A stretch of DNA of 64,000 nt. Origin: a virus. Below are positions 21,401 through 60,534 of the stretch, one piece after another. Made by a program: the position numbers and the translations under genes. The notes beneath the pieces were generated by a model, which was not told the DNA's origin, did no database searches, and was given only the letters and a program-made list of their open reading frames with translations. How positions within the stretch are numbered: position 1 is the first letter of the stretch; each line of letters begins with the position of its first letter. The stretch is from the IMG/VR virus record IMGVR_UViG_3300016674_000106. One strand, 5' to 3'.

Positions 21401-24400
21401 AAATTAAAACACAAAGTTTTGATACTACAGCATACTGGGATTATGTTGACTGGGTTGATTTAACATATGACCCAGTGAAACCGCTTTCGGCAACTGTTAA
21501 CCAGCTTTATGAACTCGACACTATAACACCAAAGACTGGAGATTACGTTAAGGTTAAAAATCCAGGCAACGGTCGTTATTTAATTTTACAGAGAGTTGAT
21601 ACCGATGGAAACTTTAGCAATGATTACAACGTAGTATATATGGAAAAAGGAACATTGCAGTTCAAAGATACTGTTTGGAATACTTCAAATTCTAGATTTA
21701 ACTTTGATTACATTGCAACATACGATCAAACACAGTACGATCAAGCTCCCGACATTGAAATAGCAAATGTTCTTCGCGCAATTAAAGAAGATTTATTTAC
21801 CGGTTCTCTCAAAGGATACTGGAACAAATTCTTCTTTAAGGCAGTAAGATACGCACTTTCTGAGCAGAAGGCAGTAGACTGGGCGTTTAAAACATCCTTT
21901 GTTAGTGTTAGAAATAAAGCAGGAGAATTAGAACAGAGAACAAATTACAAGTTCCAAGATAGCCAATATTACGAACAATATCTCAACGAAATTAAACCGT
22001 ACAAGACTAAGATTAGAAACTTTACAGTAGATTATGAGGTAACCGAACCTACACAAACTTACACAACAGACTTTGATTTACCGGCGATCTACGATAAAGA
22101 AACTAAAACCTTTGTTTCTATTAATGCTAACGACCCTGTCTTAGAAGAGTACCCTTACAAATCATGGAGCGATAATTACAAGTTATCAGTTGAAAAGATA
22201 GTAATCGCACACGGAGGATCTGGATATACTACGGTTCCGAGAGTAGAAATTATTTCTGCGCAAGGAGACACCGGTTACGGTGCTACAGCCCAGGCATACA
22301 TTTCTGCAGGAAAGGTCTTAGAGATTACAGTAACAAATCCGGGACAAGGATATACATTAATTCCAACAGTGGTGATTGTTGGAGGGAACACTACCAACGA
22401 CTTAGCAGTAGCATATGCTCAATTAAAAAACAACAAAGTTAGAACTTCAGAAATTGGTCTAAGATTTGATAGAGTGTCTACAAAGAATACAATGCTGTCA
22501 AGATCGGCAACTGACAGTTTTGTAGCGAGCGGGGTTCAAAACGAATTTTCGTTATCATGGGCAGCAGAGTATAAAAAATCCGACATTGTTGTTACAATTA
22601 ACGGCATCCCAATACTTGCAACCGATTACGCAATTGATACATTTACAAAAGAATATACTCCATTTGCTGAAATTTCAGGATACACTAAGATGTATTCGAC
22701 CTTGATACTGAATTTTGTTCCCGAAAAAGATTCAATCATAAAAATTACATACAACAAGAATATAAATCTGTTTAATGCCGCAGAACGTGTAGCAGAGTTT
22801 TATAAACCGACTACCGGAATGCCAGGAAACGATATTTCTCAAGTTATGTCGGGAGTCGAGTTCCCAGGAACACAAATTCGCACCGCTCCACTAAGCTATT
22901 CGGTAACGTGGGATACAACCCCGTACGGGTCAGTTGACTGGGACAGCGACGATATCAACTTTGACACAATAATCGATGGCGGAAATCTTGAATATACACT
23001 AGCATCTGGTGTAAATCCAACAGACATTACTATCGACGGTGACAAATTTTTATCGAGCAACACACGGTATGCACCAGAAGAATTAGTACCCGGGGAAGTT
23101 TGCGAAAGTGTTGGAATAAGTGTGTACACACGCAACGTTAATACTACGCCAGCAATAACTAGCGTCATTGCTGAGGTGTCATCGACTGTTAATCCAACAA
23201 TTGTCCAGTTACCTTTAACTCCTCCGAGTACATCATCCTTGATGGTAATATTCGACAATGCATCGCTAATTTATGGTATAGATTATACAGTTAATTTTAG
23301 TCAAAATACCGTAGAGATTTTACCAAGAGGGACAACTGGCACGGTTGAAATAACAGTTATTGGTGTCGGTGGTAAGGAATTCTTGTCAGCAGATTTTGTA
23401 AAAGCAGAAAGCCAACCGACGATGTATGTCGAAACGACCGGTCCTATGTCCGAGGTAGGAAGTGTCTACGTCACTCTTAACGGAACACCGTTAACATCGA
23501 GCGATTACAAAACTTTAGATGTAGACGGACAAGGAAGAGTGGTAGTTGAAAATCTTCCTCTAGGAACTAACACCTTGCAGGCATGGTTCTTTAAAGCAGA
23601 GTACAAAGGATTTAGTGAAGTAAAAGAGCAAATTATTGTAGCATCGGGCAACGAAAATTCCACGTTCACTATTGATCAGGTTCCAGGAACTATGTGGTCA
23701 GCAGGATCCCAGATAATCGTTGAATTAAATGGAAACCGTTTAGTGCCGTATAGTAGTTCTTATTACATCGGCGTCCCTGAGCAAACTACTTACAAAATTG
23801 ATGCAAATCTATCTAGACCGGCAGGCGTATATAATCTTCTAAATGTCGAGGTATACGTTAACGGCAACAAGTTGAGTGCAGGAACAGACTTTATCATAGA
23901 TCAAGACGCTAACTCTGTAATACTAAACAACGCGGTTTCGGGAGATCAAATTGCAATTACTAATAGTGCATACAGTGAGTTTAAGATCACCGATAATCAG
24001 TTAGAAATTCTCAAACCTGTGTTAAGCGGCGATACTGTTAAAATTGTGACCTACACAAATCAGGATTCTTTAGGAATGCGCACAGAAGTATTTGTTTATA
24101 GCACTGCTCGTCGATTTAAGATTAGCAGAGAAATAATAAGCAGCAATTATGCATGGGTGTCTGTAAATGGGCATCAACTAATGAATCTAGCAGACTACTA
24201 TATCGACACTGATAATTCTACTGTGGTTATCAATGAATCGGTCGAACTGAATGTAGGTGACACAGTGGTTATCATTAGTTTGCAGAACACCACCGATGCA
24301 TCCGTAATTGGATATCGAATGTTCACGGATATATTTCAGAGAACTACGTATAAGCGACTGAGCAAACAAAATACCACCCGATTAACATCGCCGTTGTTAA

Positions 24401-25071
24401 TTACCGACACTGCTATCGAGGTTGAGAATGCAGAAGTGTTATCGCAACCTAACATTGAAAGTAACATTCCTGGGGTTATTTTAATAGCCGGAGAACGTAT
24501 TGAGTACCTGGAGATCGAAGGGAATACCTTAAAGAAGATTAAACGAGCAACTCTTGGCACAGGTGCAAAAGATTACTATTCAGCAGGGACATCTTTAGTA
24601 GACCAAAGCGCACGTCAGGAAGTTCCGCATACTGATGCATTAGTTGCCTGCTATACACAAACCGACGGTAGAACTTTTTACAATTTCTCCGATATGACAT
24701 TTAGAAAAGGTACGCAAATAGAAATTTTAGATAGTGCCGACTTACGAGATCAAGTCGAGGTGTTCTGCGGCGGAGTCAAACTTAACAAGATTGGTGTAGT
24801 AGTACACGATCCTGCTATTGCATACGATAGCGGAGAAATTACAGCTTCTGGCCAGTTGAGCGACGTTGTAATTCCTCCTCAGTTTACCGTCGAAACTGAT
24901 GGAATTTCTCTTTCTAACGATGTCGCTGATTTAAATCTTACAATTATTCAAAAGAAGACTGCATCGTGGAATAGTGAACCGGGCGTGTCTCTAATTAACG
25001 ATTCGACGCTTCCGGCTATATTTTTAAGAGATAAACCGGCCGTCCTGCCTGATAAATATCACTATGGATGA
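12439..25071 (+). CDS. 4210-aa giant baseplate/tail structural protein (gp7-like position), multidomain
   Basis: Uninterrupted ORF after gp6; contains FG-GAP-like repeats, two CBM5/12-like W..Y motifs and repeated G.GY...P.V.I..G modules typical of phage baseplate proteins. Confidence 0.65.
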   Translation: MSKKKNIEKKSVNLLPAFFRTEKNSKFLSSTVDQLIKTPELTRLDGYVGSKLSPNYKVTDKYISESSALRQNYQLEPALVIKQSDQLIKKAFGFDDLVNQVSYYGGKTNNLDRLFRPNVSSYDPHIDWDKFVNFREYFWMPTGPDTVSVTGAQKNTVSTYTVTESPDGKFFIFTPDGLTSDPLVYLYRGNTYVFNVNNTSNTFYIKTAPELGSNASYVGASGNGTKNGQVILVVDENTPSVLFYQSAESQEAGGRIVVRRPSENSAINIDREIVGKAEYTSGNGVKFVNGLKVKFSGNVEPIQYREKEFIVEGVGREIKLIEFTKLITPEDLATLHNTSFDGTAFDQYPFDDFKNIPIVPEYVTINRASKDLNPWSRYNRWFHIDVLTMAAELNGSELNLPFDRRASRPIVEFRPNIQLWNFGTAAIEPIDLVDEITTDAFSVVEKSSGYYIDEIALEQDFRVVFSADTDPAVSSKVYRVNIAQIDGKKVIDLIEEATLSYGDSLLVKQGKNRRGTEWWYNGSRLVFAQQRTKRNQAPRFDLFDKDGISYSDPIYQTSEFLGSKVFGYSVNETGVSDPVLGFPLKYKSDTITGVGAYLFENYFDTEQISLISGDTVEQVSTTDTYLRINDNNYRFENVWVPAEYYRIPVLQLEVLTESTDTVEVACFDTPALITDLEISVFVDGKKKKQGKDYVLQTENARLFVKFSTNLESSRVLLKCYTLASPNNRGFYETPINLTNNPLNNKVTELTLSELTDHVSTMVNQADEFIGEFPGVSNLRHLTDITKYGSRLVKNQNSLAFAQHFITDVENNAIDAIRAAATDYYNFKINLINHISKIGSAERTIAEVLDAALTEINTNKNTTFPYSRSDMLGYGRNTVEKVYRVTDPRNNVYPVSNAFSLDSLSSRSVIVYHIDGNNGKISQLVVEKEYTFIPEDSAVRIKRSLLRGDTIKVVEYVSTAGSYIPPTPTKLGIYPKFEPSIYVDNSFSSGPKKVIQGHDGSITIAFSEYDQPDEFRDLALLEYELRVFNNLKTKFNTEFLNIHDVVPSVFRKTDYSLDEINDLARADFIKWASVYGIDATTNSGYDRNNYTTYNYASTKDYVFDCQLPGSWRAIYKFYFDTDRPNTHPWEMLGFTIMPEWWESYYGPAPYTSGNKILWNDLEEGRIRQGSRQGIDAKYARPGLSTIIPVDDSGNVVDIRAWPGIEQNPAIVDTDQDWSFGNIGPAELAWRRSSLWPFTVQVILALSKPADFAAQFFDPARLTKDIAGHYTYAEDNAFLSTDRVKLYSDTDASGSTVLGSGYHVWVVERGLQRSVNYTSTLKDELKFAGVNLFYKFSGFTSKDKIDLIIDSVNPTSSNPGVTLPTEDYSLIFNVSNPVKTASISGVIVEKKDGYFVLKGYDKYSPYFTILEPIYRSSKSTVTVGGKSEPFVSWTANTFYQSSQVVYYGSRYYRVTMSHNSGNSFNTTNYQTLRELPIIGGATVHTTSDFEKTETVIPYGSKFSTIQEVYNVLIGYGAWLESQGFMFNQYIQELGQVVDWKFTGKEFLYWTTQNWSVGTVITLSPFADQLVYKSVDSVVDNVLDTFYEYSLLSADGMPFPTKNFSLSREDSTCTITTKNTTSGLFFARLNLVQKEHAIVLNNTTLFNDIVYIPESGYRQNRLKISGFKTANWQGDFVSPGFVYDAAQIVEWAPYTDYPVAAVVKYAGKYYSANQKVSATEEFQFDRWSILNEKPTPQLLPNFDYKINQIEDFYSLDIDNFDIGQQKMAQHLVGYTPREYLDNIFVDQIAQYKFYQGFIREKGTRNAISKLSKASVHNLHGQLELTEEWAFRAGAYGSYTTFNEIEFPLKEASFIENSQVVTFVDTIPELAEDSVAYTTLSDLEIKPAGFSSSAAFATEKSTFDNNPNVLPTAGYPMITEVTATAYNKNSLFDIANNGSIKEGDTIWLGFRDDGQWDVYRYTKQSAKVVSSEVTTPGSVLRFTTDRFHGLSVGDIVSVYGLDNGTDGVYRVINFDTLTSFDVESALNTVNVSETSALMYKFVSVRVNSFDDINKLQEDVDFVPGDIVWADSNNAGKWAVYQKMQNYKTASVTESTSGARNQQLGSTIYASSESNIVLVGAPGYVSGTEKGRVFVYEVAESETTLLVNFGINSIKNEHYVEGTDTGFGTAIHFDAASNAIFAGAPFASNVNHGANAENEGLVKISKINPELYDEIPVTVIANQYAQPNALFGASVLVVNTKEPKKLLLVGAPGQNGVGSVFVYSLDDNLTSSLTKILDKNPDYSSRFGESIVSSGDGSRLVVTAPGAYNKTGSLYVYTYLGNSQFSTQPIEILAPESCKDGDEFGSVIKMTADGKYLFVGTTKTISGSNLYGKVFVYKWNNSTYVLNQTINNISANTDLIFGTSIDVNDSADTLIIGARGNKSFAGVILDNNDTTFDGTNCTFGDIISGVGSVFVFNRYSDKFVYSEELFDKSVIARSKFGESVAINANAIIVGAPGYNDKGAFYQFQKIDPLINSWNLLRSQPDSVDIKKIRQVCIIDSRDEEIKEWVDTIDPIKGKIAGIADQEVRYKTAFDPAVYSIGFQGTVVDTETSWIDSHVGELWWDLSSVKYVWYEQGDSTYRKNTWGTIFPGASIDVYEWVKSEYLPSQWSSIADTVEGLAQGISGQPKYVDNSAISVQQYYNATTGATTNVYYFWVKNKVTLPSSVDRRISAAEVARIIYDPVAYGLKTLSIISENSLVVSNVKDSLVADRMHLNIAADDINSSINKHTEWLLIEENSNTSMPSDQLEQKLFDSLLGRDMLGNPVPDPSLSNRTKFGIDVRPRQTMFKNRRLALRNLIDYTNSVLQKNAVTDVISFNWLNSKEEIPNADLGYYDVLVETLEELESVSTTSVDVAKISCDVKYGKITGVIIDTPGRGYKIPPVVTISDNLFGAVIKTEINSVGEVVGATIVNPGKNFVSAPEITVRPFTAVVQLDSSSSNKWAMYQVVNKSWVKIKTQSFDTTAYWDYVDWVDLTYDPVKPLSATVNQLYELDTITPKTGDYVKVKNPGNGRYLILQRVDTDGNFSNDYNVVYMEKGTLQFKDTVWNTSNSRFNFDYIATYDQTQYDQAPDIEIANVLRAIKEDLFTGSLKGYWNKFFFKAVRYALSEQKAVDWAFKTSFVSVRNKAGELEQRTNYKFQDSQYYEQYLNEIKPYKTKIRNFTVDYEVTEPTQTYTTDFDLPAIYDKETKTFVSINANDPVLEEYPYKSWSDNYKLSVEKIVIAHGGSGYTTVPRVEIISAQGDTGYGATAQAYISAGKVLEITVTNPGQGYTLIPTVVIVGGNTTNDLAVAYAQLKNNKVRTSEIGLRFDRVSTKNTMLSRSATDSFVASGVQNEFSLSWAAEYKKSDIVVTINGIPILATDYAIDTFTKEYTPFAEISGYTKMYSTLILNFVPEKDSIIKITYNKNINLFNAAERVAEFYKPTTGMPGNDISQVMSGVEFPGTQIRTAPLSYSVTWDTTPYGSVDWDSDDINFDTIIDGGNLEYTLASGVNPTDITIDGDKFLSSNTRYAPEELVPGEVCESVGISVYTRNVNTTPAITSVIAEVSSTVNPTIVQLPLTPPSTSSLMVIFDNASLIYGIDYTVNFSQNTVEILPRGTTGTVEITVIGVGGKEFLSADFVKAESQPTMYVETTGPMSEVGSVYVTLNGTPLTSSDYKTLDVDGQGRVVVENLPLGTNTLQAWFFKAEYKGFSEVKEQIIVASGNENSTFTIDQVPGTMWSAGSQIIVELNGNRLVPYSSSYYIGVPEQTTYKIDANLSRPAGVYNLLNVEVYVNGNKLSAGTDFIIDQDANSVILNNAVSGDQIAITNSAYSEFKITDNQLEILKPVLSGDTVKIVTYTNQDSLGMRTEVFVYSTARRFKISREIISSNYAWVSVNGHQLMNLADYYIDTDNSTVVINESVELNVGDTVVIISLQNTTDASVIGYRMFTDIFQRTTYKRLSKQNTTRLTSPLLITDTAIEVENAEVLSQPNIESNIPGVILIAGERIEYLEIEGNTLKKIKRATLGTGAKDYYSAGTSLVDQSARQEVPHTDALVACYTQTDGRTFYNFSDMTFRKGTQIEILDSADLRDQVEVFCGGVKLNKIGVVVHDPAIAYDSGEITASGQLSDVVIPPQFTVETDGISLSNDVADLNLTIIQKKTASWNSEPGVSLINDSTLPAIFLRDKPAVLPDKYHYG
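25051..25058 (+). promoter_or_regulatory. Late promoter-like GATAAATA
   Basis: Inside the 3' end of the giant gene, 30 nt before the next ATG. Confidence 0.5.
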
Positions 25072-48709: not shown

Positions 48710-51379
48710 TTAATCAAAACTGAAAAGATTGTTGAACGTGTTGTCTTCGGTTGTAGACATCAGATCCCAGTCAAGGACTCCGATTAGGTTCTCAAGTTTA
48801 TTGTTGATAATTACGGACTCCATTTCGCTGTGGTCGAACGGTAATTCTTGAAACCACTTAGGCAATCGAAGTTCGTCGACGGGGTATGCAACTGACGTAA
48901 ACCCGATAGGGTTTTCTTTTAGCTTGCATACGATTACTTTCATGCCGTCAACAATCGGTTGGCTATACTTGTCCCCGTTCATGCGTCGCAGCGTGTTCCA
49001 ATTAATGCTTGCGCGCACATGTCCTGGCATAGTCGTTTTGCCATTCTTTTCTTCTTTAGCTTGGTACTCAGTAATGTTATTGGCCCGCTTCGGAGAACCT
49101 TTTTCCCAACCCGGCCTGGCCTTGAATAAAGTTCGAAATTCTTTAATCATTTCGAGGACTTCGGTCTCGCCGGCACCGTGTAGGACTTTATTTAGAACAT
49201 CGCTTAAGAAGTTCTGCATATATTCAGGCGTATCGCTGCGCTTTAGATCGAGCCCCATTGCCTTAATCTTTCCGTCTTTACCATTAACATCTTGACGCTT
49301 CCCGTCTTTGTCGTAATAAAGTACAGCATACCGTTTTTTGGTAATAAACAAGCCTTTAGAAGCTACGATTTCTCGCCCTGCTTTGATAACGGATCCGCGA
49401 CTCTTTGGACAATGAAATTTGTCTAACATCATCTGAGGGAAAGTGCTATTCACTTCTTCAGAGATGTTATCGTACAGATGGATTACAGTATCTTTATCCC
49501 ATTGAATAAGCCCTTTACTGATGTCATTCTTTAAGATAGGATACGCACTGAAATATGCAGAGTCAGTGTCACCGTAAATAATACTTTTACCCACATGATC
49601 GTACTCTCCGGTTATAAGTTCATTAACCTTTGCGGCCATATGCTTAGCAACTTGCCGGCCAGTGAGAGTTGTTGATTGTCCGATTCTGTTATCAAAGAAT
49701 CTGCATCCCGCGTTAAGAATTGCACCGTATAGCGAGTTTAGGTTAATCTTTTTAACTAGCTGTCGTTTGTCCCAGTACTCTTCTTCGATTGCATTTCCGG
49801 CTTCGATTGCTGCCTTTAACTTAGCCTGCATTTCTTTACGCTCTGAATACCATCGCTTTAGCAGACCAGGTATAATTCCTTCTTTTTCGTATGTAAAGAT
49901 TGTACCGTTGGCACTAATGGTCCATGGCTGGTTACTCTCGAATAACATTTCATAAATCTGAGCGCCCGACATTACGTCAGTTTGACCATTCTCCCAGTCA
50001 ATGATGATATCGTGAGTGCGATCCTTTGCCATTACAAACTCGTATTCGTTAGAACCGAATTTGCCTTCCCATGCTCCTGCAAAACTTGACCCTTTGGCCA
50101 TTTTTGCTTCGATTTCGGCCTTTGTGTATTCGGGTCTGAGCTGCCCGACAATGGTTTCTGGCCCCATGTTCAACGCGCGAATCGCAGAAGGATACAGAGA
50201 GTTAATGTCCATTGATCCGATCCAGTCGTGCAGCCCTTTCTTTGGATATGCAACATATGCACCCGCGGCCTGCGTATCTCCTTGTTCGCCTTTTCGTTGA
50301 CGACTTGGAACAATTAAACCGTGACTATGAGCTTCGTTAATAATAGCCTGCTCTGTAACGGCAACAGCTCCCATAATAGTCGGAAGAAGAACAGTGTTCT
50401 CGTGGGCAAGTGTGTTTGCAAGATCTAAGAACTTCAGCTTCTTATCTAGTCGATCCAACAGTGCTGTATCTTGCCGGTTGTATTCGATGAACTTTTTAAA
50501 ATCTCGATTGTAAAGCTGATCCAGCGTGCCTTCGTATTGAGTCTTTCTTTCACCGAGCTCGTAAAATGCAATAGCATCTAACGAATAACTATGCCGTTCT
50601 TCGTATGTGTATTTTCGATACAGTTCTAAGCTGTCCATGTGCACACGACCAACAAAGTCGTATGTAATTGCCGTTTTTCCGTACTTTTCGTACTCTCTCT
50701 TTTTCGGAAGCTGATTCCACAGGCAAAACCGCCGAGTATCATCTTTACTTAGAGTTTTTGTAACGCGATTAACAGTATACGGGATATCGAAACCTTCGCT
50801 GTTCCAGCCGCTTAATACATCAGCATCTTCGATAAGAGTTAAAAATGTATCTAACATCTCATACTCTGTTTCGAACAGGATAGTGTTAGGGAACTCTTTA
50901 ATTTCTTCTTGGGCCTGCTCCATTGTGAGCGTTTTTGGCGGAACTGCTAGACACACTAGAGTATCTAGCCATTGCATATGCACCGCAATCGAAGTAATCG
51001 GCATAAACGCATCCTCCGGCGATGCGTATCCGCGCTCTGGGTCAAAGTCAACTTCGATATCGAAAAACGCCACATTTAGTTTAGGCGCTTCTTTTCCAAG
51101 GTAACACTCTTCGAGCGCTCGGAACACCGGATTAATATCGCTTTCGAAGAGTTTTTTGCCAGAATGAATTCGTTGCTCTTTTGCGAACTCTTTCCAGCTT
51201 CGGCAACTAACCTTTGTAAGATTGTCGCCAAAAATGCTTTTATATTTTCCTTTCGGATCCGGATAATAGAACATATACCTTGCAGGTATATCTTGGTATA
51301 CGCGTTTTTGATCGGTGTTTCTTTCTACAACCCGTATAATATCGTCATCTCTTAACCAAATTGCATCTACGTAACTCAT
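48710..51379 (-). CDS. Family B DNA polymerase (gp43-like)
   Basis: Exonuclease FFDIEVD, GWNS..FDIPY, YN..D; polymerase DINSLYPS, K...NSLYG, YGDTDS, KKRY. Confidence 0.97.
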   Translation of the reverse strand: MSYVDAIWLRDDDIIRVVERNTDQKRVYQDIPARYMFYYPDPKGKYKSIFGDNLTKVSCRSWKEFAKEQRIHSGKKLFESDINPVFRALEECYLGKEAPKLNVAFFDIEVDFDPERGYASPEDAFMPITSIAVHMQWLDTLVCLAVPPKTLTMEQAQEEIKEFPNTILFETEYEMLDTFLTLIEDADVLSGWNSEGFDIPYTVNRVTKTLSKDDTRRFCLWNQLPKKREYEKYGKTAITYDFVGRVHMDSLELYRKYTYEERHSYSLDAIAFYELGERKTQYEGTLDQLYNRDFKKFIEYNRQDTALLDRLDKKLKFLDLANTLAHENTVLLPTIMGAVAVTEQAIINEAHSHGLIVPSRQRKGEQGDTQAAGAYVAYPKKGLHDWIGSMDINSLYPSAIRALNMGPETIVGQLRPEYTKAEIEAKMAKGSSFAGAWEGKFGSNEYEFVMAKDRTHDIIIDWENGQTDVMSGAQIYEMLFESNQPWTISANGTIFTYEKEGIIPGLLKRWYSERKEMQAKLKAAIEAGNAIEEEYWDKRQLVKKINLNSLYGAILNAGCRFFDNRIGQSTTLTGRQVAKHMAAKVNELITGEYDHVGKSIIYGDTDSAYFSAYPILKNDISKGLIQWDKDTVIHLYDNISEEVNSTFPQMMLDKFHCPKSRGSVIKAGREIVASKGLFITKKRYAVLYYDKDGKRQDVNGKDGKIKAMGLDLKRSDTPEYMQNFLSDVLNKVLHGAGETEVLEMIKEFRTLFKARPGWEKGSPKRANNITEYQAKEEKNGKTTMPGHVRASINWNTLRRMNGDKYSQPIVDGMKVIVCKLKENPIGFTSVAYPVDELRLPKWFQELPFDHSEMESVIINNKLENLIGVLDWDLMSTTEDNTFNNLFSFD

Positions 51380-52090: not shown

Positions 52091-52393
52091 TTATTTTCTT
52101 TTGAGGGCTTCGGCTAATACAGAGCCGAGATACGATAGGTAGGATTCGTTTTGTTTTTGTTTGCGTAATACTGGTTGATCGTGCAGGCTATGCCCGCCTT
52201 CCATTATTGCCATGTCTAAGGTAGAAAAACGGCGAGAGGCCTCGCCGAATTCGTTTTTCTTATGCTTTACTTCGCCGTTCTTTTGAGATTTCTTTTTGTC
52301 TTTATGTGCGCCAGCGCCGGATGTCTGTGCATTTTTAACAACAAAATTTCTCGGTTTCGATGGTGGTAGTGTTTTAGGTGTGTTTTTAGCCAT
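52091..52393 (-). CDS. Lys-rich hypothetical protein
   Basis: 100-aa basic ORF in the late cluster. Confidence 0.55.
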   Translation of the reverse strand: MAKNTPKTLPPSKPRNFVVKNAQTSGAGAHKDKKKSQKNGEVKHKKNEFGEASRRFSTLDMAIMEGGHSLHDQPVLRKQKQNESYLSYLGSVLAEALKRK

Positions 52394-52395
52394 AA

Positions 52396-53943
52396 TTACC
52401 TCTTAATAGCAGGTCCTCCGAAGATACTAGTGCCTTTCATGTTTAATGCGTTGTCTGTTGGTTTTTGTGATTTTGGTTTTGGTTGTGCCGGTGCCTTAGT
52501 TCCGCTTTTACCCGGAGAACCAGTGTATGATTTCTTACCTCTTGCTGCGCCCGGACTTACATGAGGGTTCGGAACCGTAGCGATATTTCCGCTCGATGTT
52601 GCACCTACTGTTGCCGATTCGTTATTAATTTTTACCAAATTTTTGTGAGCCAGTGCAGCGTCGAACATCGTTTCTTCGTCTTTGCCTCTAACGAGATACT
52701 TAGCTTTTCCTTGGCGCTTATCGTAGTATCTTTTTAGAACAACATAAGTTTTTCCTCTTTCTGGGGAGAAAATGATATCGTCTTTGTCCCACTTCCACTG
52801 GCCGGGGTTTGATGCAGATTGTATTGCCACGTCAGCATGCTTTTGCGCAACACCACTCTTAACTTGGTTTGATAAATTTTTTCTAAAATCGTCCAATGAC
52901 TCCGACAGCTTGATGTTTCTTTTCTTTAGTTCTAGTTCTAACGCCTGAAGTTTGTTCGGACTTCTTGCAATAGCGTTTCTCACATCACCTGCTACGTCTT
53001 TTGGTAGTCGCATTAATACTTGATTAATAATTGCTTCTACCTGCTGGTTTTGCTGAGCCGCAGCAGACATTTTGCTCTTCTCTCGCTTATCGTGTGCAGC
53101 AATTCTCGGATCGACGGTCGGTTCATCATCGTCATCGATTTCTCCGTATTCTGCCTCGAGGCTGACAATAAGAGCGCGGTACGCGGCTCGATCCGTAATC
53201 CACTTATTAGCATTTGTTATCATTAGTCTATGCTTGAAGTGTGTGCCTGCTTTTACTAATAGTTCCGGAAGGAACCTAGATATGTCTGAGAAACTTCTAA
53301 AATTTTTCGACAGATACTCTTTAATTTCTTTAGATGCGCCTGGCGCAAACTTTATAAGGTCATATAACTCTTTTTGAATCTTATTGAAGTAAAAGGTATC
53401 ATACCATCTGGAGGTATATCCTCCAGATACTAGTCCCCACTTTTCTAGATCACCGTGATGGGCAGCAGCATACTTTCTTAATTGAAAAGAGAGAGTGTCG
53501 TATAGTGCGGCAACTGGATCACCGATGTCGGTCGCAATAGCATCTAACGTTGTTTTTAAGCTAACACTTTCAGATAGAGTGGCTCTGTTTGGTACCGGAC
53601 TTGTTTTATGAACGTAATCAGGTTCTTTACTTTTATGTCTCTTATCTGCAATCTTGCCGTCAGTGGGTACAGTTTTCATCGCCGACTGAATCATTTTATA
53701 TTCTTCATCGGTATACGGCTGAGCGGTATTATATTTTTCGTACCAACTTGCTGAGTCCATGTCAACGGGCTTAGTTGACTTTCCATCGGCCATTCCGGCA
53801 GCCATCATAATTCTGTTAAGATGATAAGTTCTATCGTACCCGCCAGTGTCTCGCATTTTAATTGCGCCTTGAGACACTGTCTTGTGTGATTTTCTTATTT
53901 TTCCAGCGGGCTTTGACTCGCCGAGTATATCGTTGATTCGCAT
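52396..53943 (-). CDS. Putative head-internal modular protein
   Basis: 515 aa; starts MRINDILGES; modules separated by LSES/NNES; late box upstream. Confidence 0.5.
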   Translation of the reverse strand: MRINDILGESKPAGKIRKSHKTVSQGAIKMRDTGGYDRTYHLNRIMMAAGMADGKSTKPVDMDSASWYEKYNTAQPYTDEEYKMIQSAMKTVPTDGKIADKRHKSKEPDYVHKTSPVPNRATLSESVSLKTTLDAIATDIGDPVAALYDTLSFQLRKYAAAHHGDLEKWGLVSGGYTSRWYDTFYFNKIQKELYDLIKFAPGASKEIKEYLSKNFRSFSDISRFLPELLVKAGTHFKHRLMITNANKWITDRAAYRALIVSLEAEYGEIDDDDEPTVDPRIAAHDKREKSKMSAAAQQNQQVEAIINQVLMRLPKDVAGDVRNAIARSPNKLQALELELKKRNIKLSESLDDFRKNLSNQVKSGVAQKHADVAIQSASNPGQWKWDKDDIIFSPERGKTYVVLKRYYDKRQGKAKYLVRGKDEETMFDAALAHKNLVKINNESATVGATSSGNIATVPNPHVSPGAARGKKSYTGSPGKSGTKAPAQPKPKSQKPTDNALNMKGTSIFGGPAIKR

Positions 53944-53971: not shown

Positions 53972-53979
53972 TATTTATC
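53972..53979 (-). promoter_or_regulatory. Late promoter-like GATAAATA
   Basis: 28 nt upstream of the ATG at 53943. Confidence 0.55.
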
Positions 53980-54514
53980 GGATTGATAAACCTTTTTTAA
54001 CTTCGTTAAAAAGCTCAGTTGAAAATTCGTTAAAATTAGTCAGTGTACAAAATTTATCAAAATTATTCTCTGCTACTGCCTGCCTAATTTCGGTTGATCG
54101 AATTGCCGGACTGCTGAATTCTACAAATTCAAAATCTAAATCATAAAATCCGTGAGCCGACATACAACCGTTATATTTTAACAGTAGTTCTTTAAACCCG
54201 CTAATTCTATCAGTTCCGGCAATAAATGTCGCTCGTTTGAATCCATGTTGATGCAGCCTTGCTGCGGCCTTGAGCACAGTATTAATTGTTCGGTCTGTGT
54301 TAACTCCTGATGCAATTTCAGGGAACATTCTTTTTATTAAATCGACCTTTGTTTCGAATTCAATTGGGTTAGTTTTCTTGTCCCAAGACGGACTTGCAAA
54401 TATTCTAAAATTAGAGCCGTGACTCATTACCTCTTGCATTAGTAAGCGGTGACCGTAATGCGGCGGCTGAAACCTTCCGAAACAAAAGCTAACATGTTTT
54501 GGATCAATAATCAT
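53975..54514 (-). CDS. HxGH (cytidylyl/adenylyl-transferase-like) nucleotidyltransferase
   Basis: FGRFQPPHYGH, FIAGTDR, IRSTEIR; start at 54514 from the ATGA overlap. Confidence 0.8.
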   Translation of the reverse strand: MIIDPKHVSFCFGRFQPPHYGHRLLMQEVMSHGSNFRIFASPSWDKKTNPIEFETKVDLIKRMFPEIASGVNTDRTINTVLKAAARLHQHGFKRATFIAGTDRISGFKELLLKYNGCMSAHGFYDLDFEFVEFSSPAIRSTEIRQAVAENNFDKFCTLTNFNEFSTELFNEVKKGLSIR

Positions 54515-55626
54515 TTTCTCGGAGCCCACTTTTCTTGATTAATAAGTTTAATAAATTGATCAGGAATATCGTATCGAAATTCCACATTAGGATGTGGCTG
54601 GACATAACCTTCAGGATTGACCATTTTAATATCTGTTAATTCGTCCTGATTGATTCTAGACATTACCTTATGTTTTAATGCTGTAATTTTTTCTATCGAG
54701 CGAAGTAGAACCACAAGGTCGTGTTGATGCTTATAGAGCACAGCTCGTCGCCGTTCTGACAAGTTTTCATTTGCCCAACCTTTAAATAGATGAATAATGT
54801 ACTCTTTTCGGTGAACGGCATTTAGAAATGTATACACGATTTCGCCTGGAGTTTTCATAAACGGTTTTGAATTTAAAAACGTATCAATAGCATCTGCGTT
54901 TTTCTTAATATATTCAGTAACCGTCATTGCATCTTTTAAGAGATCTAATTCCGTATCGGTAATGTTGGGCTGTATAATACCCGGAGCGGTTGATGTAACA
55001 GGTCCTTGGACAATAACTTGATTACTGCTCTTTGTATATTCAGGTCTTTTTTCGATAAAAGATCCTATACTATCGTAAAATCCTGTAGCAGAAATCATAG
55101 CTGTAGCGTTTTCAATTCGCTGACCTGTTAGAGATTCCATTTCTACTTCGAACCGAGTGATATTGGGTTGAAATTTAAACACATTTGTTTCTACCTCTTT
55201 TGGAGCCATAGGAGAGAACAAAAAGCTACCTTCAAAAAACCCATTATCGGGACTGACTTCTTCCATTAACGGCCAGAGAGACGACAACGCCTTTGCATAT
55301 GCAATTCTTTCGTCGGAAATTTTGCCGGTGTTTAAAATAAAATCTTGAAGATCTTTCGCTCGTGTAGGAACTACAGGAGTGCCGTCGGCTAACATTCGAG
55401 AACCTCGCTTGTAATAATCCCAGGCATTCTTAGTCATCATGGTAAACTGACCGTGTTGTTTACCCCAAAAGATTACCGGATTTCCGTCCCATTTTATTTC
55501 TAATGTAGACGGATCTCTTGCTATATGCACTAGTCGTTCCACTGCATGAAGCCCGCCAACGGCTCCGTGAGTAAGCAACAAGTCCTCGACATGCTGGTAT
55601 TTTCTACCAACTGAGTTAGTTTGCAT
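54511..55626 (-). CDS. Ligase-like (KxDG) nucleotidyltransferase-fold protein
   Basis: H.EDL...G, IKWDGNP..FWG (motif I), FEG...F, EGYV, IKL. Confidence 0.6.
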   Translation of the reverse strand: MQTNSVGRKYQHVEDLLLTHGAVGGLHAVERLVHIARDPSTLEIKWDGNPVIFWGKQHGQFTMMTKNAWDYYKRGSRMLADGTPVVPTRAKDLQDFILNTGKISDERIAYAKALSSLWPLMEEVSPDNGFFEGSFLFSPMAPKEVETNVFKFQPNITRFEVEMESLTGQRIENATAMISATGFYDSIGSFIEKRPEYTKSSNQVIVQGPVTSTAPGIIQPNITDTELDLLKDAMTVTEYIKKNADAIDTFLNSKPFMKTPGEIVYTFLNAVHRKEYIIHLFKGWANENLSERRRAVLYKHQHDLVVLLRSIEKITALKHKVMSRINQDELTDIKMVNPEGYVQPHPNVEFRYDIPDQFIKLINQEKWAPRK

Positions 55627-56269
55627 TATTGATATATTTTTCTTTAATGAAGTTAAGTTTATCTGGATACGGTCTCAGCGCCGCAAACAATGAGGTGATA
55701 GATGAAATATCAATCGCCGACGCTGTATTATCTATTATAGCACGAGCAATGACGTCTTTACTACTGGAGATTAACTCATTAGTTTCTCTAACTACTAATC
55801 CTTTGTAAGGACTAATTTTAAGATGAGGGTTAGATAGTTTTAATAAATCGGCCCACATTGCATGCAATGTTCCGCCATTCATAGTTGGATCGACCAAATA
55901 ATCGTGTGTATGTAGTGCTGCAATACTGCATGCGTTTTCGACAATCATAAGATCGCACTGTGAAACCCCGTTACCGTTTTCAATGCCAACATGAACTGAA
56001 ATTCCGTTTAAAATGGAATACAGTCCTTGAGAAATAAAGTGGTCTCTGAGTTTAGTTTTAGCATCAGCTAACGTATCTGCACTCAGCGCAGACATTAAGA
56101 GATTAGCGTCGATTAATGCATCGAGATCTGATGCTATTTCTTTCTTGCCTGCGGATCCGATAATAAAAAATGGAACAGTTGTTGGTAATGCTTTTTTTAG
56201 ATTAGATTCAATCGTGTGTATGTTACTGTATGTTACCGGACCTGCATCCGGTATAAGCTTTCCGCCCAT
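55616..56269 (-). CDS. Pol-beta superfamily nucleotidyltransferase
   Basis: IGSAGKK..ASDLDALID (GS-x-DxD) plus a third Asp in SQCDLM. Confidence 0.65.
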   Translation of the reverse strand: MGGKLIPDAGPVTYSNIHTIESNLKKALPTTVPFFIIGSAGKKEIASDLDALIDANLLMSALSADTLADAKTKLRDHFISQGLYSILNGISVHVGIENGNGVSQCDLMIVENACSIAALHTHDYLVDPTMNGGTLHAMWADLLKLSNPHLKISPYKGLVVRETNELISSSKDVIARAIIDNTASAIDISSITSLFAALRPYPDKLNFIKEKYINNAN

Positions 56270-56287: not shown

Positions 56288-56677
56288 TTAGATGCCTAAT
56301 TTATACTCGCCTTTACGGATATCTTCGTAACAATGATCACCGAGTCTGCAACATAGGCCTTTTCGAAGATCGAAGGAAAATTCGTCTCTCGGATCTCCGC
56401 TAAGTTCTTGTTCTTTGTAATAACGCAAACAGGCTTGATTTACCATCGGCATCCACTTAGGGTTAAACTTTTTTGCATCGAACTTGTTGGCCTTCATTAG
56501 TCTTGCTGCTTCTTGTGCAAGAGGAATGAAATACTTTTTATGAAGAGAATCGTCGTCGAGCATAAACCAAAAAATTTCATCGCCGAGCTTTTCTTGGTCT
56601 TTTTCAGTCTTGCCGGATAACTCGTCTGTCGAGTCGGTAGTCGGTTGATGTGCGCCAAAGAATTCAAATAGTTTCAT
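56288..56677 (-). CDS. Hypothetical protein, capsid-targeting-like N-terminus
   Basis: 129 aa, MKLFEFF start; AATAAATA box at 56709-56702. Confidence 0.55.
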   Translation of the reverse strand: MKLFEFFGAHQPTTDSTDELSGKTEKDQEKLGDEIFWFMLDDDSLHKKYFIPLAQEAARLMKANKFDAKKFNPKWMPMVNQACLRYYKEQELSGDPRDEFSFDLRKGLCCRLGDHCYEDIRKGEYKLGI

Positions 56678-56707
56678 TCTGTTTACCGTATTATAATAAC
56701 ATATTTA

Positions 56708-57136
56708 TTAGTGATTGTAATTAATAAACAGCACCGAACCGTTTGTTTGCTCGTCACTACGATGCACTTTTGCTCTAACCCATACAAAATTTCCGACGAA
56801 GTTTACATAGTTAGTCGTAGTTGATGCCGGAACGTTCGGTTGTATATATGTAACTTCAGTGTCTTTAACATTAAACCAGTCTGCTTCGGTCGGCTCGGTA
56901 GCTAACGATGCTTGCATTGTTAGCGTTCCAATAAACTGCGGAGTAACGGTGTATGTTACTGTATGTAGTCCATCAGCTGACCCGAAATATCCGTCCCCTT
57001 TTTCTTTAATTGAATTAAAGATGTTGCCCCCGCCCGGAGCATACGCAGCAGACGGGATAGCAACAGAAGTCGATGTAGTTGCGTTTGTTCCGGTAGATTG
57101 TATAACGAAATTGATTTGTTTACTCAATGCTGGCAT
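56708..57136 (-). CDS. Probable small virion beta-sandwich protein
   Basis: Thr/Ser-rich, ends NFVGNFVWVRA; GATAAATA at 57162-57155. Confidence 0.5.
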   Translation of the reverse strand: MPALSKQINFVIQSTGTNATTSTSVAIPSAAYAPGGGNIFNSIKEKGDGYFGSADGLHTVTYTVTPQFIGTLTMQASLATEPTEADWFNVKDTEVTYIQPNVPASTTTNYVNFVGNFVWVRAKVHRSDEQTNGSVLFINYNH

Positions 57137-57140
57137 ATTA

Positions 57141-57788
57141 TTATCCTGATTGAGTATTTATCTCCGTTCTTAGCTTAACTTCTTCGATTAACTTTATTGC
57201 ATTGCCAGCTGATAGAACTAACATCGAAAGTGTTTTATCGTCAATTACATATAGATAATACGATGGGTTCCACCGCCACTTGCCTGCATTTAACCACAGA
57301 TCGACTGCATGATTAGCCTCGCAGGTTTTTGCGTTGTTTTGCATCCAATTCTTAACAGAAAGTCGTTCGTTATCCGATGCAGTAGGTTTGAACGTAACTT
57401 TAAATCTGTACTTTCTTTTAAATAACTGATTTTTAATTACAAACTTTCTACCGTGATTGACTAGCGTTTTCAGCTCTTCGGCTGTACCTGGTCCCCAAAA
57501 TTGTAAACATCTAGATTTAAATACATCAACAAACTTGTCTTTTAACGCAATATCTTTAAAGAAGATTGCTAATCTAGTATGTTCTCCTCGGGTCGCATAC
57601 TCGGTACTGTCGAAAGATTCTAAAAGTTTTGCTACCGCCTTGACATCTTGTAAGTCGATTTTTGAATGCCAGGACGGGTTCTTTTGCACCATTTTAAGCC
57701 AAGAGGCTCGTTCAACTGATACTACTAGTTTGAACGGCCACTTGCCATAAAATAGCTTACTGGTTGTCAGTGTTGCTATTTGCGTCAT
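57141..57788 (-). CDS. Hypothetical protein
   Basis: 215-aa ORF overlapping the clpA 3' end. Confidence 0.55.
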   Translation of the reverse strand: MTQIATLTTSKLFYGKWPFKLVVSVERASWLKMVQKNPSWHSKIDLQDVKAVAKLLESFDSTEYATRGEHTRLAIFFKDIALKDKFVDVFKSRCLQFWGPGTAEELKTLVNHGRKFVIKNQLFKRKYRFKVTFKPTASDNERLSVKNWMQNNAKTCEANHAVDLWLNAGKWRWNPSYYLYVIDDKTLSMLVLSAGNAIKLIEEVKLRTEINTQSG

Positions 57789-60036
57789 TCGTCTCTAATT
57801 CCTGAACTGGCATTACTTCAATAAAGTTAAGAACCAGTTCGTTATTCTTAACCGATGCTTCTACTACTCCGCCGTTAACAAGCTTACCAAACAGCAATTC
57901 CTTACTAAGCGGCTTCTTGATGTATTCGTCGATTGTTCGCTTCAACGGACGAGCGCCCATCTTTGCGTCAAATCCCTTGTTGATCAAAAACTCCACAGCA
58001 TCGGCAGTAAGCTTAACATGCACATTCCGATCCTTGACAAGGACATTGAGGTCGTCGATAAATTTCTTCACAACCTTAATCATAGTGGTGTGATCAAGCT
58101 TAGAGAACTGAATGATGCCATCGAGACGATTGCGAAACTCAGGAGTAAAGAATCGTTTGATTGCATCACTAGTATCAGTGCTTCGTTCAAGAGTCCCGAA
58201 GCCGACTAGATTCTTCTCCGCATCGGCTGCACCAATGTTAGAAGTTAGAATTACGATTGCGTTACGCCCGTCTGCAACCTTGCCGTTGCTACCAGTAACT
58301 GCGCCGTTATCCATAAGTTGGAGCAGAACCGTTAACACGTCTGGGTGAGCTTTTTCGACTTCGTCGAACAGCAGAATGCAGTTAGGAGTTTCTTGGAGCT
58401 TGGTAATCAGCTGGCCGGCGTTATCGTCGAACCCGACGTAACCCGGAGGGCTACCGATAAACTTAGACACAGAATGCTTCTCTTGGTATTCACTCATGTC
58501 AAATCGAACCAGCGGAGTGCCCATATTTGCAGACAATTGCTTTGCGGCCTCAGTTTTACCAACTCCGGTAGGACCAGTAAACAAGAAGCTACCAATGGGT
58601 TTGTTGAGCTCTTTGAGGCCTGCTTGTGCAATAAAGATTTTATCCAGCAATGCAGTGATCGCGTTATCTTGTCCAAACACCTTTGCCTTCATGTTCTTGT
58701 CAAGATCACGCAGATTCTTGTTTTCCTTTGCAGCAATTTGATCATGCGGAATGTTAGTAATACGACTAACTTCGAACACAATCTGATCGTGATCAACAAC
58801 GCCGTTTTCTTCATCGCGTAGTTTGAATCGCGCGCACGCACAATCGATGAGATCCAGAGCCTTATCAGGCAACTTCTTATCGCTCATGTACTTAACAGAA
58901 TATTTCACTGCATCAGCAATTGCCTGGTTAGTAATCTTAACCTTGTGGTGCTTTTCGTAATACTTGCGAAGGCCCTTGATGATTTTGATAGTAACTGCTT
59001 CAGTAGGTTCGTTCACTGTTACCCGTTGGAATCGACGCATAAGTGCACGATCCTTTTCGAAGTGTTTGCGATACTCTTCCCAGGTTGTAGAGGCAATGAC
59101 CTTAATAGCACTCTTGGCCAACGCGGGCTTCAGCATGTTGCTCATGTCGTTAGCATTGCCACTTGCTGCGCCTGCACCGCTCATCATATGAGCTTCGTCA
59201 ATGAACAGAATGCAGTTTTGCTTCTTTTCGAGTGCAGCAAGAACTTGCTTAAGGCGCTCTTCAAAATCGCCTCGATACTTAGAACCAGCAAGCATGGCGC
59301 CGATATCAAGACTAAACACCTCGTGATTCTTAATAAAGGTTGGCACTTTACCTTCGTGAATCTTCCGAGCAACACCTTCGGCAATTGCGGTCTTACCAAC
59401 GCCAGGGTCGCCAACAAGCATCACGTTGCTCTTATGTCGCCGCGCAAGAACCAGCGTAAGTTCTTCGATCTCATTGTCTCGGCCGATTACAGGGTCAATC
59501 TGATTCGACGCCGCTTTAGCACTCAGATTAGTGCAATACAGGGAAAGTACCTTATCTTGTTTGGTCGAATCAACAGGTGCTTCGGTGGTGTCGTCGTTAT
59601 TTTGGTTGTCTTTAGTCATGTATTCAATAAATGCATCTCTATCAATTTTTGCCTTTTGCATGAAATAGTTTGCATAACTCTCTTTTTCAGAGAAAAGGCT
59701 AACAAAGCAGTCAACAGGTTCGATTGTTTGTCGACCAGTGAACAGAACCTGCGTAAAAGCACGATTCAGCATTCGCTCAACTGTGTTTGTTTTTTTAGGC
59801 GATTCTCCGGCTTGGAGGGTTGCAATGCCGGCATACTCGTTGTCGATAAAATTGACAAGATCGTTGCGAAGTTGGCTAACATCGGCACCAAATTCAGCTA
59901 AGAATTCACAAAATTCTTTGTCAAGAACCATACCATACAGGAAATGTTCAAGCGTAAGATACTCGTGATTTCGATTGATTGCTGCGGTCAGCGCAGTATC
60001 AAACATAGTTGCCAGTTGCTTATTTGGACTCAACAT
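57757..60036 (-). CDS. clpA: ClpA-type ATP-dependent chaperone
   Basis: Clp N-domain (HEYLTLEH.L); D1 [27 protein letters not shown]; D2 [32 protein letters not shown]; LVGF loop. Confidence 0.93.
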
Positions 60037-60039
60037 TGA

Positions 60040-60534
60040 TTATTTCCTTTTCTTCGATTGTTTGACTGCTAGTGCCCATTTTAAATCACTAATTCGATCT
60101 CGATACGTAATGCCTTCGAGATGATCAAATTCATGCAAGAAACATCTGCATGCATACCCGTAAAACTCACCCTCTTTTGTTTCGCCGGAACTGGTTTGCC
60201 AGCGGACCATAACTCCATTGGGTCTCTTAATTTTAGCATAGATACCAGGAAAACTCAAGCATCCTTCATCCATTTCAGAAAGCCGTTCTGTAGTGGCGAT
60301 AATATGTGGATTAAAGAACCCTTGGGCAGATTCTGGATCTTCCTTATTTCCCATAACAAACATTCTAACTCGTTTGCCAACCTGATTAGCCGAAAGGCCA
60401 ATGCCGCCGCTTGCAAACATTGTTTCGATCATGTCCTTTTCGAGTTGAACTGGGTCTTCTGACGGATTCAAAAAATCAAATTCTGGCATTCGTTCTTTTA
60501 AAATGTCCGCTGGGTGATGAATAATTTTTAGCAT
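60040..60534 (-). CDS. def: Peptide deformylase
   Basis: GIGLSANQVG, EGCLS, HEFDHLEG motifs intact. Confidence 0.95.
   Translation of the reverse strand: MLKIIHHPADILKERMPEFDFLNPSEDPVQLEKDMIETMFASGGIGLSANQVGKRVRMFVMGNKEDPESAQGFFNPHIIATTERLSEMDEGCLSFPGIYAKIKRPNGVMVRWQTSSGETKEGEFYGYACRCFLHEFDHLEGITYRDRISDLKWALAVKQSKKRK

Follow-up and report, generated by a model that had tools for sequence, protein, structure and literature searches.

A 64,000-nucleotide stretch of viral DNA (IMG/VR virus record IMGVR_UViG_3300016674_000106; the whole of it is called the window below) carries three consecutive, overlapping minus-strand genes, here termed g1, g2 and g3, for a predicted polymerase, a predicted ligase-type enzyme and a nucleotidyltransferase. 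The source is an uncultured jumbo myophage, giant and T4-related; its family B DNA polymerase (48710-51379) is 43-51% identical to the enzymes of Sinorhizobium phage Phosso, Vibrio phage 2.275.O and the Rak2/121Q/GAP32 group. A first-pass annotation had singled out the trio by the motifs GS...DLD, KWDG and HxGH and by overlapping stops and starts, and all of these are present:

55616-56269, minus strand: g1, 217 aa; predicted minimal family-X-type polymerase (palm and thumb); GS at 38-39, D48, D50, D106
54511-55626, minus strand: g2, 371 aa; DUF6267; K45-W-D-G, E132-G133, E339-G340, K360; helical insert at about 224-323
53975-54514, minus strand: g3, 179 aa; HxGH (HIGH) nucleotidyltransferase; G13-R-F-Q-P-P-H-Y-G-H22; second motif R-S-T-E-I-R
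55616-55626, minus strand: g1/g2 overlap, 11 nt, the g1 stop with the g2 start
54511-54514, minus strand: g2/g3 overlap, ATGA, the g2 stop with the g3 start

The start of g3 is most likely the ATG at 54514; the open reading frame (ORF) list had chosen a GTG at 54529 (53975-54529), which would lengthen the overlap with g2 to 19 nt. Megablast matched the region to no cultured phage, tblastn with g1 likewise found nothing, and tblastn with g2 matched cyanophage P-HM1 only. Three IMG/VR contigs (L001, L002, L004) encode a g2 that is 99% identical to that of the window; across them g2 and g3 are 99-100% identical and g1 only 94%, so the polymerase-like gene is the fastest-changing member of the trio.

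The product of g1 matched no Pfam, PHROG or NCBIfam family at E values up to 0.1, and the Pfam scan gave no match to PF10127 (RlaP). Its AlphaFold2 (AF2) model has a predicted local distance difference test score (pLDDT) of 93.5, and Foldseek returned 341 matches in the PDB at E ≤1e-3, led by Thermus PolX, Pol lambda and Pol mu with E values of 2e-6 and up and template modelling (TM) scores of about 0.53. A wide structural search (VIA), which is independent of Foldseek and was run on the g1 and g2 models, placed family X polymerases in all of the top eight positions, with alignments that span palm and thumb (Z 9.8-10.6, 157-173 residues). The first of these sets g1 residues 7-191 on the palm-thumb region of Pol beta (142-334; Z 10.6). 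Pol X of African swine fever virus (ASFV) also ranks high (5hr9; Z 10.3, 157 of 176 residues aligned, 17% identity), and after these two come TdT, Thermus PolX, Leishmania Pol beta and Pol lambda. Other Pol-beta transferases (TUTases, CD-NTases, MenT and others) align over the palm only, with about 95 residues and Z of at most 8.5. The 8-kDa lyase and fingers (helix-hairpin-helix) domains of canonical PolX are absent from the 217-aa protein, and the aligned ranges begin at about residues 101-142 of Pol beta. In an alignment of 21 g1 homologues, G38, S39, D48, D50, D54, H93, Q104, D106, H120 and H122 are invariant; the equivalent G/D/D/Q/D residues are likewise invariant across 65 diverse multidomain proteins with this PolX-like domain.

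Judged from the model, g1 is predicted to be a minimal family X polymerase of ASFV Pol X architecture, with palm and thumb and without an 8-kDa or fingers domain. The first-pass label of Pol-beta thus stands at the level of the superfamily, and has to be narrowed from a generic Pol-beta transferase to the family X type. This assignment shifts the favoured function away from CCA-type tRNA end repair, protein AMPylation and signal-nucleotide synthesis, and the family X palm and thumb shift it towards gap filling plus sealing.

The product of g2 belongs to Pfam family DUF6267 (PF19782, E 3e-12), for which a search of the open-access literature found no papers; the same was true of the partner DUFs. 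Relatives are plentiful, with 133 in a word-indexed search and 336 related stretches in IMG/VR. We compared 46 diverse DUF6267 domains, including those of cyanophage P-HM1 and phage Melnitz. K45, D47 and G48 (motif I, KxDG) are kept in all 46, and E339, G340 and K360 in 45. Conservation of at least 90% extends to H12, E14, D15, K45, W46, D47, G48, K66, G133, P154, N155, N269, K318, E339, G340 and K360. By pattern alone, the protein fits ligase motifs I (KxDG), III (EG..LF, E132-G133), IV (EGYV, E339-G340-Y-V) and V (K360).

The AF2 model of g2 (pLDDT 88.8) drew nothing significant from Foldseek, its top match being T4 Rnl1 at E 0.08. In VIA, RNA and DNA ligases alone align across residues 8-370, at modest Z (4.6-7.0) and over 141-192 residues. 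The RNA ligases include the Naegleria enzyme (Z 7.0), REL1 (6.5), Trl1 and T4 Rnl1 (5.6) and Rnl2 (5.3), and the DNA ligases of Sulfolobus, T4 and Chlorella virus score about 5.2; the helical insert at about 224-323 draws unrelated helical bundles at similar scores. No oligonucleotide-binding (OB) domain is evident in the secondary structure of the model, which ends in three short strands after motif IV. Pfam DNA_ligase_A_M and DNA_ligase_aden gave no match, nor did the RNA_lig_T4_1 and RNA_ligase profiles of Pfam and NCBIfam, and the resemblance to Rnl enzymes is structural only. From the motifs and the model, g2 is likely an OB-less member of the lysine-nucleotidyl ligase superfamily. The ligase-like character read earlier from KWDG agrees with the invariance of this motif and, at modest Z, with a ligase fold of the nucleotidyltransferase core.

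The third product scores above the cut-off of Pfam PF01467 (CTP_transf_like; 34.3 bits against 21) and matches PHROG families phrog_3041 and phrog_395, annotated as cytidyltransferase. Both HxGH-family motifs are intact in its alignment (H19-Y-G-H22 and R-S-T-E-I-R), in agreement with the earlier call of an HxGH transferase, and its G-R-F-Q-P-x-H-x-G-H signature is one that we take to be typical of NadM/NadR-type NMN (nicotinamide mononucleotide) adenylyltransferases (NMNATs). The product of g3 is thus an intact HxGH nucleotidyltransferase and, by motif and by weak NCBIfam matches, appears nearest to these enzymes. Its homologues occur in 556 cultured phage records, mostly of T4-like cyanophages, and the ESM Atlas clusters near it are all viral; some of them are fused to PAP2 and DUF5824, to NTP_transf_2, to an AAA_33/Zeta_toxin kinase with NTP_transf_2, or to DUF7230. 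A gene named as a tRNA ligase near the HxGH gene of cyanophage P-SSM2 (PSSM2_198; L094 271-1074) is class II aminoacyl-tRNA-synthetase-like (PF00152), not an RNA ligase.

The three genes travel together. We assembled 77 viral loci from IMG/VR, not all of them independent lineages, in which the ligase is 39-44% identical to g2. In each of the 68 loci where this could be tested, the ligase gene is followed at once by an HxGH gene that overlaps its stop; of 74 loci, 69 have a PolX-like domain immediately before the ligase or within its ORF (40 of them fused). All three members occur together in 60 of the 65 loci testable on both sides (about 92%), so that linkage is common among these distant loci, and the g1, g2 and g3 alignments all keep their catalytic residues. 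Rare linkage and unconserved motifs, the two outcomes that would have spoken against the first-pass annotation, are both rejected. The HxGH genes of this set are mostly of a divergent subtype (G-W-G-R-G-M-G-H-K-G-H) that Pfam misses. An exhaustive profile search with the PolX-like alignment recovered 581 clusters at E ≤1e-3 (50% identity clusters). Local hidden Markov models run on the best 150 of these found 20 PolX-ligase, 4 ligase-PolX and 3 PolX-ligase-HxGH single polypeptides, and in the triple fusions (P0191, P0235 and P0253) the domain order equals the gene order of the window. When 65 multidomain members were scanned with Pfam, DUF6267 was the partner in 26; other partners include an Rnl2-type RNA_ligase domain (PF09414) in one and NT5C, which we take to be a HAD phosphatase superfamily domain, in two. 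The family phrog_455, a ligase-HxGH fusion, matches both g2 and g3, and a DUF6267-HxGH pair, with no PolX detected beside it, is found in phage Melnitz and the cyanophages P-HM1 and S-RIM2 as well.

Because the arrangement recurs and is fused elsewhere, it is far beyond chance. Synteny, fusions and conserved catalytic residues strongly support the three enzymes as one module, and since the genes adjoin or fuse in many phages, they probably form one co-translated unit, an uncharacterised repair kit for broken nucleic acid. An accidental neighbourhood of unrelated genes is excluded by the synteny and fusion statistics. Hypermodification of phage DNA was considered alongside it, as the cyanophage neighbourhoods include a 2-oxoglutarate-Fe(II) oxygenase and MazG, and one relative's HxGH protein carries a dCMP-deaminase-like domain; however, none of the enzymes that transfer glycosyl, methyl or aminoacyl groups in known modification pathways was seen in the cluster with Pfam, PHROG or NCBIfam. 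We consider either of these explanations very improbable.

The reading that we favour, at roughly an even chance, is that the trio is a fill-and-seal (polymerase-ligase) repair module for broken nucleic acid in which g3 supplies the adenylyl donor. In this scheme g1 would add the missing nucleotide or nucleotides to the 3'-OH at a gap or break, after which g2 would charge itself on K45 and seal the resulting 3'-OH/5'-phosphate nick. The product of g3 would supply or renew the adenylyl donor, in the simplest case by forming NAD+ from NMN and ATP; alternatively it would prime ligation in another way. The substrate may be DNA, RNA, or DNA ends extended with ribonucleotides as by LigD. The first-pass annotation had offered RNA repair, NAD restoration or nucleotidylation of host targets as possible tasks of a joint module; the joint module is borne out, the favoured function has moved to gap filling and sealing, and NAD restoration becomes a minority option.

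Several observations weigh against this proposal. The role of g3 within the module is its weakest link and a guess. The only named NCBIfam matches of g3 are NMNAT/NadD/NadM models, the best of which (TIGR00482) reaches 25.9 bits against a cut-off of 112, and neither its sequence nor its profile found a usable solved relative in the PDB, the profile matching NadD at E of about 0.5 only. Members of the viral HxGH family also occur without DUF6267, in phages XaC1, PA5oct, SP27 and P-SSM2. The assignment of g2 as a ligase comes from its motifs and from structural matches of modest score (Z 5-7; Foldseek E 0.08), and neither its sequence nor its profile matched any solved ligase in the PDB. Profile comparison found no PolX-like gene beside DUF6267 in P-HM1 or Melnitz. 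The PolX-like domain is fused elsewhere to unrelated effector-type domains (Tad3, NUDIX, GNAT and amidoligase), which fits a looser context of "polyvalent effectors". No end-healing kinase or phosphatase, such as a Pnkp-like enzyme, was found in the trio cluster of the window, and two near-complete related genomes (400 and 345 kb) yielded no NAMPT/NAPRTase.

The same two genomes bear on the kind of ligase that g2 may be. Both encode a canonical ATP-dependent DNA ligase (PF01068), and neither yielded an NAD-dependent or an Rnl2-type ligase; a search of relatives with PF09511 (Rnl1) gave no match in control genomes either, and thus does not show that Rnl1 is absent. With a canonical DNA ligase present and an Rnl2-type ligase absent, DUF6267 would be an additional, specialised ligase. 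The idea that it stands in for a missing replicative DNA ligase was rejected for the jumbo clade on account of the canonical ATP-dependent enzyme in these two relatives.

A narrower form of the fill-and-seal reading would confine the trio to RNA, with g1 restoring 3' nucleotides in the manner of RlaP and g2 acting as an RNA ligase against anticodon nucleases or other RNases. Structurally, g2 comes closest to RNA ligases, and the OB domain that DNA ligases have is missing from it; the related genomes carry a DNA ligase and no Rnl2-type enzyme, one PolX-domain protein has a PF09414 RNA_ligase domain, and RlaP with an RNA ligase is an established pairing. On the other hand, the resemblance of g1 to DNA-repair PolX covers both palm and thumb, g1 falls outside PF10127, the Z scores of RNA and DNA ligases on g2 differ by less than 2, the cluster has no Pnkp-like healing enzyme, and no tRNA genes were found in the window. 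We see restriction to RNA as unlikely.

The matches of g3 raise another explanation, a counter-defence module for NAD+ or a related cofactor, in which g3 would be a true NMNAT that rebuilds NAD+, and g1 and g2 would process adenylylated small molecules, not polynucleotides. With the NadM, NadR and NadD NMNATs, including those of jumbo phages (PMC7824862), g3 shares the HxGH fold, G-R-F-Q-P-x-H-x-G-H and a second S/T-x-x-R motif, and NMNAT/NadD models are its only named NCBIfam matches. HIGH-type NMNATs are known in jumbo phages for NAD+ supply (PMC7824862), and viral relatives of g3 are fused to an AAA_33-type P-loop kinase, a NUDIX-like domain or PAP2, which recalls NadR and NadM-Nudix; one PolX-domain protein is fused to a Tad3 anti-Thoeris domain. 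It differs from the known NMNATs in that its scores lie far below the curated cut-offs (25.9 against 112 bits), in having no Nudix or kinase fusion of its own, and in the absence of NAMPT from related genomes. With no NAMPT/NAPRTase in the two relatives, a complete phage NAD salvage route is not evident there, and phage NAD salvage with NAMPT is unsupported in them. The folds of g1 and g2, moreover, are those of polynucleotide enzymes, which a cofactor pathway does not need. We think it doubtful that the trio serves NAD+ or a cofactor in this way.

A further set of observations concerns the N-termini of proteins in and around the cluster. For these, two neighbours of the trio are relevant:

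56288-56677, minus strand: g0, 129 aa; conserved upstream neighbour; N-terminus M-K-L-F-E-F-F, like the T4 capsid-targeting sequence (CTS)
52396-53943, minus strand: g4, 515 aa; downstream neighbour; CTS-like N-terminus M-R-I-N-D-I-L

The T4 CTS is M-K-T-Y-Q-E-F-I-A-E and is cut off by the prohead protease (doi 10.1101/2021.01.19.427310; PMC10229621). In relatives, proteins of the block (L012, L034, L042, L081 and others) often begin M-L-L-R-E-L-F or M-K-I-R-E-L-I-L-E. A simple leader pattern was found in 21 of 21 PolX-ligase fusions, 12 of 17 ligases and 30 of 40 HxGH proteins, against 78 of 376 other genes, a set that itself includes other members of the block. The two near-complete related genomes encode a T4-type prohead protease, and the tails of HxGH proteins in relatives include LysM, VanY, PG_binding, deaminase and DUF6321 domains. 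As in T4 internal proteins, then, the PolX-ligase, ligase and HxGH proteins of relatives, together with g0 and g4 of the window, start with a similar leader of about 10 residues ending in an L/I-x-E-type site; unlike them, g1, g2 and g3 of the window start without one, and packaging and cleavage in the relatives are predictions from sequence. The leaders, the protease and the tails support head packaging and injection in the relatives, as a prediction. For the phage of the window, delivery in the head is not supported, because g1-g3 have no leader. The suggestion in the first-pass annotation that the enzymes act after injection accordingly suits the relatives, with their frequent CTS-like leaders, and not the window's own trio. 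In phage Melnitz, similar leaders stand on four successive genes around the DUF6267 and HxGH genes.

Such leaders could also mean that the three proteins are linked by delivery and not by chemistry, as head-packaged, injected "polyvalent" effectors that each nucleotidylate a host target of their own (protein, RNA or small molecule) early in infection. The leader counts, the prohead protease and the tails on the HxGH proteins all speak for this, as do the Tad3, NUDIX and GNAT fusions of PolX-domain proteins, and polyvalent proteins are a known theme (PMC5512222). However, the fixed PolX-ligase-HxGH order and the repeated fusion of exactly these three argue for joint chemistry, the window's own g1-g3 are leaderless, and the DUF6267-HxGH pairs of cyanophages lie among replication genes and have no leaders. 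Separate effectors of this kind seem to us rather improbable.

A bolder version of the fill-and-seal reading combines the two themes. DUF6267 would be a new OB-less clade of polynucleotide ligases that forms, with a mini-PolX and an NMNAT-like enzyme, a self-sufficient break-repair kit making its own adenylyl donor; in many giant and T4-like phages this kit would be loaded into the head by its leaders, injected, and put to mending nuclease damage or surviving NAD+ depletion at the start of infection. We offer this as a speculation that is unlikely to hold. The leaders of relatives would make the module a candidate for repair enzymes delivered with the genome, a point of interest for the survival of large phages under defences that use nucleases or deplete NAD.

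The closest validated precedent for a fill-and-seal module is PgVPolX of Phaeocystis globosa virus 16T, in which PolX and an NAD+-dependent ligase form a single polypeptide; biochemically, it was shown to fill and seal base-excision intermediates (PMC5537341). Like the fusions among relatives of the trio, it joins a viral family X core to a ligase in one protein. The use of NAD+ by its ligase would supply a reason for an NMNAT-like partner. The ligase of PgVPolX is homologous to the LigA type, whereas that of the trio is a DUF6267 protein with no sequence match to known ligases. PgVPolX also has dRP/AP lyase activity, and its abstract describes no HxGH partner (PMC5537341). Finally, PgVPolX comes from a eukaryotic giant virus and the trio from a phage, and a literature search for a phage PolX-ligase found no phage precedent.

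ASFV Pol X (174 aa) resembles g1 in consisting of palm and thumb, with no 8-kDa or fingers domain; it differs in that g1 has no detectable membership of a sequence family. The ASFV Pol X and ligase genes are neither fused nor overlapping, whereas g1 and g2 overlap, and the ligase partner in ASFV is of the classical ATP-dependent, OB-containing DNA type. LigD of bacterial non-homologous end joining combines a polymerase, a ligase and a phosphoesterase, and adds ribonucleotides before sealing. Its likeness to the trio is the pairing of polymerase and ligase in one repair polypeptide, and ribonucleotide addition of the LigD style offers a way in which a DNA-type polymerase could be reconciled with an RNA-ligase-like fold. 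The LigD polymerase is of the archaeo-eukaryotic primase type, its ligase has an OB domain, and the enzyme works with Ku and has no HxGH partner. Pol-beta transferases of the RlaP family (PF10127), which are common in jumbo phages, work with RNA ligases and add 1-2 nucleotides to damaged 3' ends before sealing (PMC12776372; PMC7824862). As with g1 and g2, a transferase of the Pol-beta superfamily is there genomically tied to a ligase; g1, however, is not a PF10127 protein and has a PolX-type thumb, and g2 belongs to DUF6267, not to Rnl1, Rnl2 or RtcB.

If the fill-and-seal reading is true, the trio would be to phages what the PolX-ligase systems are to ASFV and giant viruses, and LigD to bacteria. 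Two protein families gain a testable function: DUF6267 in Pfam, and the PolX-like domains, which number at least 581 clusters (50% identity) and are covered by no family model. Practical use may also follow, in the form of a new, compact ligase and a minimal polymerase.

The cluster had also been described as flanked by late boxes. Exact copies of the T4 late box TATAAATA number 3 in the window against 5.0 expected, and none was found near the cluster; allowing one mismatch gives 113 matches against 117 expected from shuffles, and the box is not enriched. Four boxes that match at seven of eight positions (7/8) nevertheless sit 19-36 nt upstream of four successive minus-strand gene starts:

57155-57162, minus strand: 7/8 late box before a 142-aa gene
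56702-56709, minus strand: 7/8 late box before g0
56298-56305, minus strand: 7/8 late box TATAAATT, 29-36 nt upstream of the g1 ATG, within the end of g0
53972-53979, minus strand: 7/8 late box GATAAATA, at the g3 stop, 29-36 nt upstream of g4

The placement of these four matches is suggestive without being established statistically, and the flanking late boxes are the weak point of the earlier description. Late transcription of the cluster is suggested by this placement, and the box at 56298-56305 is a possible late promoter of the trio. A scan of the window for sigma-70 promoters and terminators gave nothing above shuffles. By eye, the GATAAATA box is followed by an AT-rich 8-bp hairpin and then a run of T, which the terminator scan did not call.

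The trio lies in a block that is conserved in relatives and runs from peptide deformylase, a ClpB-like ATPase, a 215-aa gene, the 142-aa gene and g0 through g1, g2 and the HxGH gene to the N-terminal part of g4 and on to the DNA polymerase. The 142-aa gene matches a PHROG "virion structural protein", and g0 has no Pfam or PHROG family match. Just upstream of these small genes (57757-60534) stand a ClpB/ClpA-like double AAA+ ATPase (759 aa) and the peptide deformylase (164 aa), and their position is conserved. Downstream, g4 matches relatives at its ends only (residues 1-120 and about 442-515), which are separate genes of about 125 and 75 aa there, and its middle (79-345) is matched in a single locus, L035; it looks like a fusion or polyprotein-like gene. 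The 100-aa product of 52091-52393 has a basic motif at residues 13-48 with a weak match to DUF7230 and phrog_1359. Many relatives share this motif at 60-76% identity, and fusions of DUF7230 to viral HxGH proteins occur in the ESM Atlas. Elsewhere in the window, 12439-25071 is a single plus-strand ORF of 4210 aa in a run of large plus-strand ORFs.

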